A DNA stretch of 64,000 nt from Hormiphora californensis (taxonomy: Eukaryota > Animalia > Ctenophora): contig CM035356.1 of NCBI GenBank assembly GCA_020137815.1, positions 4,898,001 through 4,962,000 on the forward strand, given 5' to 3'. Below are positions 52,801 to 55,800 of the stretch, piece after piece. Every line of letters starts with the position of its first letter. Within the stretch, counting starts at the first letter, position 1. The notes below the pieces were generated by a model, which was not told the origin of the DNA, ran no database searches, and saw only the letters and a program-made list of their open reading frames with translations. Made by a program: the position numbers and the translations under genes.

Positions 52801-55800
52801 TAGCAGTTCATTAATTGTGTAGTATCTTGGTAGTCATTAAAAACAGTCAGGTAATAGGTTCATTAATTGTGTAGTATCTTGGTAGTCATTAAAAACAGTC
52901 AGGTAATAGCAGTTCATTTGTGTAGTATCTTGGTAGTCATTAAAAACAGTCAGGTAATAGCAGTTCATTAATTGTGTAGTATCTTGGTAGTCATTAAAAA
53001 CAGTCAGGTAATAGCAGTTCATTAATTGTGTAGTATCTTGGTAGTCATTAAAAACAGTCAGGTAATAGCAGTTCATTAATTGTGTAGTATCTTGGTAGCC
53101 ATTAAAAACAGTCAGGTAATAGCAGTTCATTAATTGTGTAGTATCTTGGTAGTCATTAAAAACAGTCAGGTAATAGCAGTTCATTAATTGTGTAGTATCT
53201 TGGTAGTCATTAAAAACAGTCAGGTAATAGCAGTTCATTAATTGTGTAGTATCTTGGTAGTCATTAAAAACAGTCAGGTAATAGCAGTTCATTAATTGTG
53301 TTGCTCAATTGTTCATTAATTGTGTTGCTCAACCCCAGCCCTAAGAAGACACCACAGAAGCACACCCTCAAACTTGAGAAAGTTGGACTGGAAAAGTGGA
53401 AAGTTGTAAAGGCGAAGGTACGAAAGACTCTGCAGTCAATCCCAGTTGATGGAACCAGCTCGAATGAAGAGGATACCAATCTAGTTTTCAAGGACAAGTC
53501 TCAACGAGACAAAGCTGAAGAACTGCTGAAATCTGAATTTGATACTTCAACAGCCACTCTGACCACCAAGAAGCTCAATCCAAAAGTTACAATCTCAGAC
53601 ATTGCTGGAGAAATTACCACTGCCGAGGAAGTGTACAGTGAAATACTGAGGAAAAATGAGGAAATCAAAGAGCAGGTTGAAAGTCACCAAGAGGAACTGA
53701 AAGTCATCTTTCTTCATAAGGAGGATCGATATGCAGTTGTCCAGATGTCAAAAAAGATACGGGAGATTGTTCGCAAAAGGAATGACAGAATTAACCTTGA
53801 TTTTCAAATCCACATTGTGAAGGATCGATTTCATATCGTTCAATGTTTCAAGTGTCAACGCTATGGTCACAAGTCAGACTCAGTGATGTGCCCCAGGAGA
53901 GACAGCGGTGATCCAGTTTGTACCTACTGTGCTGGAAATCATCGGTTCAAGGATTGTCAAGTGAAGAAGGATAGAAAAGTTGACTCCAGATGCTGTGCAA
54001 ACTGCAAGAGTAGCCGAAGCAAGATCGATCAGCTCAATGCCACCACCCACACAGCGAACAGTTTCCAGTGTCCCTTCTTTATCATGGAGAAGGAGAGATT
54101 GATGAGTAGAACAGCCGGAGCTGAGATGTTAAAAAACGAGTACAGTCGGAAGGCACGAGACTTCTTGGAAAGAAGGAGAACTCACTAAGAGTTGGGACAT
54201 TGAACTGCAACTCCCTTGTCAATAAGACTGCTGGTGTACTGGAACACCTTGAGGACCAGCTTGTTGATATTTGTCTTCTTCAAGAGACCTACCTGAGGAA
54301 AGGTGACAATGCTAAACATCATGAGATAAAGGAAAGAGGATGGGAAATCCACTCGGCACCGAGGAAGCAGAGGATTGGTGGTGGAGTAGCAATGGTATAC
54401 AGAGCGGACCTGGGTGTTAAATCTGGACCTACCAAGTGTTTCAAGACCTTTGAGTGTACAGAGACTACTATTGGAAATGCTAGTGAGATGTACCGGCTAG
54501 TAAACATCTATAGGCCACCGTACTCGAAGAAGGCACCTCATACCCAGAGCCACTTCCTGGATGAATTCAAGGGATACCTTGAGGAACTAAACTGTAAAGT
54601 CGGGACACCATTAATCATGGGAGACTTCAACTTTCACATGGAAAGGCCTGATGAATTTTATCCAAAAAAGCTACAGGAGATGATCGAGGAGTTTGACTTC
54701 AAACAGATGGTTCCCTTGATATCAACACACAGACATGGAGGTACTCTGGACCTAGCCCTGATGGATGCTACAGTAGCGGATTGTCTTGAACCAGTTAGGA
54801 TCTTGGAGGAGGGAACTACTTCAGACCACCATCTTATTACAGTGGACCTACAACTGACTGCGAGGATCAGTAAGAGGAAACGGCCGGAGACAATTTGGTA
54901 TCGGGACTTCTCGAAGGTGGATGTGGAGAGTTTTAATGAGGATCTAAAAGCCAGTGGACTGTTTACCTCACCTGCTGATGAAGAGGATGTTAATAGCCTT
55001 GTTGAGAAGTTATATGGAACGTTGCTAGCCCTGGTTGATAAGCACTGTCCAATGAAGAAGAGAAGGAAGAAAGAGAAGTATACACCATGGATGGATGAAG
55101 AGCTGCTAACCCTCCGGAGGAAGAAGCGGCGTGCTGAGAGAAAGTGGAGAAAGGACAAGACTAAAGAGAAGCTGCAGCTAAGGGCCATGTATGTGGAACT
55201 AAGGTCAGCTTTCAACAAGATGGAGGTCAGAAAACGGTCAGAATACACCAGAAGAAATATTGAACTCTGTGGACGCGATCAAAAGAGGCTCAACCAACAA
55301 CTGAGCAAGCTATTGGGTAACTCCAATGTTATCCTCCCAGATATGGTCAACCCGGAGAAACTAGCAACTGAGTTTGGAGAGTTTTTCAAGTCCAAGATTG
55401 ATAAACTACAGAAGAAGATTGGTGACAAGATTGAAGAATTGGGTGAAAAGAAATCAACGGAGTCCGGTGCTTTTGAAGGAGAAACAGAAAGATTTGAGAC
55501 GTTCAGTCTTATGACTGAAGATGAAGTGGCAAGCCTTGTTAAGAGCCTGCCGGATAAGTTCTGTGACCTGGACCCTATCCCGACCTCTCTGCTGAAGCAG
55601 CTTCTCCCTACTCTACTACCAGTGCTTACCAAAATCGTGAACACTTCTTTGCAGAGTGGTGTATTCCCGTCAGGACTGAAAGAGGCTATTGTGAGGCCCA
55701 CAATCAAGAATACATCTGGAGATGTGGACTCTCTTGCGAACTACAGACCAGTCTCGAATCTCAGTGTTCTGTCCAAGCTAGTGGAGAAAGCTGTTAATGT

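Follow-up and report, generated by a model that had tools for sequence, protein, structure and literature searches.

A conserved A_AAA_AAY heptamer at the ORF1-ORF2 junction suggests -1 ribosomal frameshifting in a lineage of animal LINEs

How LINEs translate their second open reading frame (ORF2) is described as unclear in the accessible text of PMC3708506, which gives termination-reinitiation through UAAUG coupling as the mode of SART1. A large review of recoding, in the portion available, treats LINE ORF2 as the product of unusual initiation, and names AUG-independent initiation for mammalian L1 (PMC5009743). Element 1, a LINE copy in the ctenophore Hormiphora californensis, raises the question in another form: its ORF2 overlaps the end of ORF1 in the -1 frame, and a preliminary description of the locus had proposed that ribosomes enter it by a programmed frameshift at the heptamer A_AAA_AAC. 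The window, by which we mean the whole stretch of 64,000 nucleotides that was analysed, also holds host exons (363-2513, 19208-20431 and 26670-27572) coding for laminin EGF, thrombospondin and LDL-receptor class A repeats, a pair of duplicates (19299-20994 and 26866-28319, 87-89% identical) and foldback (long inverted-repeat) elements at 12430-13357, 23146-24474 and 37448-38393, which are mutually 77-93% identical.

Element 1 is laid out as follows:

53324..57507, plus strand: element 1, a 5'-truncated two-ORF non-LTR retrotransposon within a 54-bp satellite, delimited by the L001 match, the satellite arrays and the (TTG)n tail
53324..54188, plus strand: 3' part of ORF1, with three Cys/His knuckles and the start codon lost; TAA stop at 54186-54188
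54122..54124, plus strand: TGA closing the -1 frame, two codons 5' of the heptamer
54125..57160, plus strand: ORF2, open over 1011 codons (stop to stop) in the -1 frame, with APE endonuclease and reverse transcriptase (Pfam)
54131..54137, plus strand: slippery heptamer A_AAA_AAC in ORF1 phase (TTA AAA AAC, Leu-Lys-Asn, preceded by ATG)
54137..54184, plus strand: dual-coding stretch, the ORF1 tail in frame 0 and a variable hydrophilic linker of 16 codons in the -1 frame
54203..54205, plus strand: endonuclease Asn, aligned with N14 of the human L1 endonuclease (alignment E 8e-5)
54284-54286, plus strand: Glu of the endonuclease QET motif, aligned with the QET Glu of the human L1 endonuclease
54392..54394, plus strand: first ATG of ORF2 in this copy; the next is at 54488
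57415..57472, plus strand: 3'-terminal stem-loop common to four related families (5 sequences, 19 predicted pairs)
57487..57507, plus strand: (TTG)7 tail, which passes into the satellite

Satellite arrays flank the element at 50762-53301 and 57506-57950, and the related locus L001 matches it at 95.8%, without gaps, from about 53324 onward. Element 1 is an APE-type LINE: the endonuclease (Exo_endo_phos, E 1.3e-10) precedes the reverse transcriptase (RVT_1, E 1.7e-31), the tail is a simple repeat, the copy is 5'-truncated and there are many copies, which are present in all four DNA runs. The opening of the -1 frame after the TGA at 54122-54124, its overlap with ORF1 up to 54188 and its continuation as an ORF2 of about 1000 aa, all claimed in the preliminary description, were borne out. 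That description had also credited the element with an ORF1; this stands for the 3' part that spans the heptamer, but truncation at about 53324 has removed the start, and full-length ORF1 relatives measure 394-427 aa. With the start of its ORF1 lost, this copy is a passive witness of the junction. The knuckles give a weak Pfam match (zf-CCHC_6, E 0.007), and their Cys and His residues are invariant.

At the 5' junction (53287-53332), a 24-nt unit consisting of satellite and the first bases of the element is present twice, as from repeated priming or a template jump. At the other end, a TTGTG-like site marks the transition from the (TTG)n tail to the satellite, and there is no clear target-site duplication. 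The 3'-terminal stem-loop recurs in L002 (4870-4970), L006 (5048-5148), L009 (4150-4257) and L010 (5373-5473); 9 of its 19 predicted pairs are changed on both sides among the five elements, a sign of covariation, and it is likely to be the signal recognized by the reverse transcriptase. The tails differ, being (TTTCA)n in the four relatives with the stem-loop and (TTG)n in element 1. Together with the ORF2 motifs, the stem-loop presumably reflects a resemblance to L2/CR1 lineages. Three knuckles at the end of ORF1, a PHD finger in a second element of the window (element 2, below) and an ORF2 with APE and reverse transcriptase are likewise found with the type I ORF1s of the Jockey superfamily, in which, according to the available text of PMC4120745, L2 and CR1 subgroups include elements with type I ORF1s and with PHD variants.

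The first ATG of ORF2 had been placed past the conserved Asn and Glu of the endonuclease. The position is correct, and both motifs align with human L1, but the ATG itself is private to this copy: 54392 is a G in all four DNA runs (at full depth), in one contig labelled 'RNA?' and in L001. The first AUG of the element 1 family therefore lies later still, at 54488 here.

Relatives with DNA came from one metagenome scan, in which 10 of 106 pattern matches could be confirmed, and every one of the 10 entered the analysis. One of them, L001, is a member of the element 1 family, and the nine other loci match the ORF1 query at 34-46%. Family counts omit L001 and refer to 11 families, namely element 1, the nine loci and element 2:

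61434..62903, plus strand: element 2 ORF1, with a PHD finger and knuckles, 23% identical to element 1 ORF1
62855..62861, plus strand: element 2 heptamer A_AAA_AAC in ORF1 phase (TCA AAA AAC); a TGA at 62843-62845 closes the -1 frame
62846..64000, plus strand: element 2 ORF2 in the -1 frame, with APE, running past the window end, 33% identical to element 1 ORF2

Element 3 (42636-45314, minus strand) is a distant LINE with APE and reverse transcriptase, 26% identical to element 1 ORF2. It starts at the endonuclease and has a frame break near 42680, ahead of the last 130 codons; as it has no ORF1, it provides no test of the junction. No relatives of these LINEs were found in the viral and prokaryote genome collections.

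All 12 junctions with DNA combine an ORF2 in the -1 frame with an in-phase A_AAA_AAY, which is A_AAA_AAC in 11 and A_AAA_AAT in one (L008). The in-phase heptamer noted earlier at 54131-54137 is thus no peculiarity of element 1, and it sets the junctions apart from the ORF1 bodies of the same 12 elements, where none of 24 Lys-Asn pairs is written with it. Across the 11 families the six A are invariant and the seventh base is C in 10 and T in one; in eight families a -1 stop lies 2-3 codons 5' of the heptamer. Three bases before the heptamer (54128), at a third codon position, G is found in 10/11 families, and the base just before it is C in 8/11; the two may exert a 5' context effect on slippage.

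The heptamer is conserved beyond the needs of the protein. The codon before Lys-Asn specifies Leu, Ser, Ala, Thr or Glu, yet its wobble base is A in all 11 families, and the junction Lys codon is AAA in every one; with the codon use of the individual elements as background, both synonymous choices together have a chance of 10^-10.3. Synonymous sites are saturated between families, with 30% identity at fourfold sites and 50% at conserved Lys codons (the closest pair has ORF1s 67% identical), so shared descent does not explain the fixed letters. The alignment of related junctions that the preliminary description had called for therefore comes out in its favour, heptamer and phase being kept in every family. 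The sequence K-N-x-Y may matter to the ORF1 protein too.

Slippery words also appear to have been removed from the rest of ORF1. ORF1 bodies contain 2 in-phase X_XXY_YYZ words as against 13.8 expected from synonymous shuffles (0 of 400 shuffles were as low), whereas out-of-phase words are not depleted (13 as against 13.6 expected, and 8 as against 10.6). In ORF2 bodies, each of the three phases is depleted of heptamer-like words, so that the phase-specific depletion is a property of ORF1 only. A separate observation is that in the ORF2 bodies of the 11 families A/T-run heptamer-like words are scarce in one out-of-phase register (6 as against 30 expected).

From the heptamer to the endonuclease, the -1 frame is free of stops in 11/11 families. 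This linker has 0 stops in 165 codons (11 families), as against 9.1% stops in the -1 frame under ORF1 bodies, a difference with a chance of 10^-6.9. Its sequence varies freely while its length is nearly fixed, at 15-16 codons in most and 8 in element 2. An AUG ahead of the catalytic Asn is absent in 10 of the 11 families (in element 2 the first Met lies 4 residues past the Asn), in agreement with the earlier argument that AUG initiation would yield a crippled enzyme; one subgroup keeps such an AUG. In this exception, L010, the AUG is found 18 codons upstream of the Asn, where it overlaps codons for Gln-Trp in ORF1. Protein clusters related to L010 start M-G-T at the same place; the AUG may be used or may be incidental. 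Throughout the subgroup (L010:1733-1790; P0246, P0248, P0251 and P0338) an in-frame AUG is found four codons behind the heptamer position, the heptamer itself being seen in L010, and dual entry or a step towards reinitiation is possible. Among 120 ORF2 relatives available as protein only, the called start lies 4-40 residues before the Asn in 33, past it in 50 and at most 3 residues from it in 2; the Glu motif is missing from 20, and another 15 carry long extensions. In these calls ATG, GTG and TTG are all written M, the motif search missed a few and the ORF1s were unseen.

These observations bear on whether ORF2 could instead be translated by termination-reinitiation or by AUG-independent initiation, in the manner of SART1 and L1, with the heptamer having another role or serving the ORF1 protein. 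Reinitiation has its precedent in SART1, and for AUG-independent initiation the consulted portion of PMC1965478 states that L1 tolerates non-AUG codons. In 7 of 11 families, moreover, ORF1 terminates at Asn-5 or Asn-6, where the endonuclease fold starts, and the L010 subgroup retains its upstream AUG. In the four others, however, ORF1 extends to Asn-1, within the fold, which a restart there would cut. None of the 11 families has an AUG that overlaps or adjoins the ORF1 stop as in SART1, and no near-cognate start codon is common to them. Initiation of either kind would also leave the fixed synonymous letters, the stop-free linker and the phase-specific depletion unexplained. We consider it improbable.

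If ribosomes do shift at the heptamer, they would appear to do so without the usual help from RNA structure. The short hairpins pointed out earlier downstream of the heptamer (cttct/agaag and aactc/gagtt) are true features of the minimum free energy fold, but they are no better than in shuffles (z -1.1 to +0.6) and are not conserved. Over eight windows at the 12 junctions, mean folding z ranged from -0.58 to +0.46, with no local hairpin beyond shuffles. Pseudoknot prediction, from which a stimulator had been hoped for, failed to yield one: H-type candidates arose at 4 of 12 junctions, each matched by 4-8 of 15 shuffles. A consensus fold of seven gap-free junctions was empty, and the same method does recover the covarying 3' stem-loop in five elements. 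The hairpin or pseudoknot that stands 5-9 nt downstream of canonical -1 sites is therefore absent from these predictions, and a long-distance stimulator at the 3' end is likewise not indicated. Pairing of the junction with the element's 3' end was considered and rejected, cognate pairs being no better than swapped ones (best p 0.067 of 23 tests, 5-6 elements); L006 alone has its best duplex at its own 3' end. Duplex matches that recur some 1,000 nt upstream of the end of ORF2 probably arise because the query is rich in purines and that patch in pyrimidines. Stimulation by a protein or by the nascent peptide is conceivable. Of the retrovirus-like fusion proposed in the preliminary description, the slippery site fits; because no stimulator was found, the term applies to that site only.

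We also looked at more distant ORF1 proteins. A profile of 10 ORF1s matched 5,366 clusters at E 0.001, of which the best 150 were examined, at the protein level only and with a search profile that itself includes the K-N columns. Scoring covered 149 tails (P0011, which is truncated, was omitted), and removal of 7 without a usable tail left 142. In 116 of these 142, drawn from the best 150 of 5,366, x-K-N follows the last knuckle, mostly 17-24 residues on, and in 43 of the 116 the protein ends ≤3 residues past K-N. A residue x whose codon is unable to end in A occurs in 1 of 116 tails, as against 122 of 497 in bodies (p 1e-11). Among the 26 tails without K-N, 5 were dropped as mis-anchored or cut and 4 were too short; 11 of the remaining 17 carry a heptamer-compatible tripeptide at the same place, as against 5.2 expected (p 0.004, with the window taken from the K-N class). 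These comprise five D-F-L, one Q-G-N, one D-P-F and four x-K-K, and are hints that some distant tails may fit U_UUU_UUA or G_GGA_AAC. The 90% cluster of the closest ORF1 match includes a protein labelled Pleurobrachia bachei, in keeping with a ctenophore host. In more distant ORF2 relatives (P0308, P0310, P0311, P0319, P0325, P0326 and P0330), NPGP (2A-like) motifs stand just ahead of the endonuclease, so that two kinds of recoding may be represented among neighbouring lineages.

Rather than the ribosome, the RNA polymerase or the reverse transcriptase could slip, adding one A in the A-run so that a minority of transcripts encode the fusion. Six or seven A are present at every junction, and such slippage requires no RNA stimulator, in keeping with the failure to find one. 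Nevertheless, this short run invariably ends at the Asn codon, in one phase, and the D-F-L and Q-G-N tails fit, at the protein level only, ribosomal heptamers without an A-run. In addition, among the differences listed for the four DNA runs there is neither an insertion nor any other indel or joint at the site, at the level of contigs, from which rare variants drop out. The RNA-labelled runs (three, plus one DNA run) gave contigs of depth 2-5, possibly including DNA, none of which bridges the heptamer (the X19 piece begins at 54135). Transcriptional slippage seems quite unlikely to us.

Splicing of a short intron, joining ORF1 to ORF2 in frame, is very unlikely. In P0164, a gene model from Pleurobrachia bachei, K-N-E is followed directly by V-G-T-L-N, which is equivalent to the removal of 54140-54189 (GT..AG, 50 nt); however, gene predictors bridge frameshifts with invented introns. 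No donor-acceptor pair is common to the families and none is present in element 2, with a cut-off of 5 residues before the Asn that leaves a P0164-type intron outside, and no joint is listed for the four DNA runs, although a spliced RNA that makes ORF2 should be copied into the genome. A non-AUG start and a spliced RNA had been named in the preliminary description as routes that would count against frameshifting, and neither a near-cognate start nor a splice pair is conserved. That a one-base change or a sequencing error split a single ORF in this truncated copy with its private substitutions has a negligible probability and is refuted by the same layout in L001, in 10 other families and in a contig piece from X1 (660 nt, 53700-54359) that spans the junction with no gap and two substitutions, both outside the heptamer.

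Low-level -1 ribosomal frameshifting at A_AAA_AAY, giving an ORF1-ORF2 fusion, is very probably how these LINEs translate ORF2, judging from the comparison of their sequences. As at canonical -1 sites, the heptamer is in phase and within the -1 overlap (12/12), and the downstream frame is open (11/11) and has no AUG (10/11). Because the heptamer is conserved, ORF2 lies at -1 and a usable start is nearly always missing, ribosomes are likely to slip in making the copying enzyme. The tRNA-Lys and tRNA-Asn would re-pair one base back on A_AAA_AAC in a tandem slip. A majority of ribosomes would end ORF1 42-63 nt past the heptamer, supplying abundant free ORF1 protein, and a minority would read through a linker of 8-16 residues into the endonuclease. 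In the element 1 family, the fusion predicted for a full-length element has about 1,390 aa (381 ORF1 residues of P0005 and 1,007 from ORF2). Pfam detected no protease domain, and the enzyme would therefore stay attached to its ORF1 moiety. The slip itself may well need no RNA stimulator and occur at a low basal rate, in agreement with the phase-specific purge of heptamers from ORF1. A LINE needs little ORF2 protein, which a low slip rate would suit.

How does this junction compare with known systems? A_AAA_AAC is the gag-pro site of MMTV. It is among the most shifty eukaryotic heptamers, as the relevant part of PMC5009743 has it. The junction resembles retroviral sites (MMTV/HTLV gag-pro) in that an in-phase X_XXY_YYZ ends a knuckle-bearing first ORF and is followed by a -1 enzyme ORF without an AUG; it differs in the lack of a conserved 3' hairpin or pseudoknot and of a detectable protease domain, and in belonging to a non-LTR retrotransposon. 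Most likely, then, it works like a retroviral shift site that lacks the canonical 3' stimulator. SART1 and L1 likewise have a bicistronic LINE RNA and make little ORF2, but they produce free ORF2 protein, whereas here stop and start do not overlap, and constraint on the -1 frame sets in at the heptamer.

Frameshifting had been thought to be suggested for a few non-LTR elements, and this proved correct: a figure legend in PMC5911963 states that a -1 frameshift is required in TRE5-A and TRE3-A of Dictyostelium (L1 clade). Those elements are amoebal, and the legend gives neither a heptamer nor a conservation test; the present lineage is animal, has a knuckle-type ORF1 and keeps its heptamer fixed across families. 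Other forms of translation or recoding in LINEs, each as described in the accessible part of its source, include the requirement of Zorro3 for its own AUG (PMC1965478), a frameshift needed within the gag of HeT-A (PMC5009743), +1 shifting, reinitiation or readthrough suggested for Paramecium LINE groups (PMC5405496), and 2A StopGo in APE-type non-LTR elements (PMC3708506), which splits one ORF, unlike the -1 junction here. The main text of PMC4120745, as available, has neither 'frameshift' nor 'overlap', and that of PMC13343379, on the vertebrate CR1 group, neither 'frameshift' nor 'slippery'. In the literature covered, in which subscription papers and Repbase Reports are thinly represented (PMC5006619 and PMC11512398 included, in part), LINE frameshifts appear in passing statements on Dictyostelium TRE, HeT-A and Paramecium, and we found no description of animal LINEs whose ORF1-ORF2 junction carries a conserved -1 heptamer.

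It is about an even bet that the finding extends further, and that a large lineage of animal LINEs makes its reverse transcriptase as a Gag-Pol-like fusion through a bare heptamer that needs no RNA structure, that can be swapped between A_AAA_AAC, U_UUU_UUA and G_GGA_AAC, and that is purged elsewhere in ORF1 because it shifts by itself. For LINEs other than L1 and SART1, frameshifting and not reinitiation would then be a main way of making ORF2. With seven bases that stay fixed among families saturated at synonymous sites, the translation of LINE ORF2 becomes directly testable. If frameshifting is indeed used, ORF2 annotations that begin at the first Met would be wrong, and many natural -1 sites would seemingly work without RNA structure. 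The enzyme would be born attached to the ORF1 protein, and models of particle assembly and cis preference would change.
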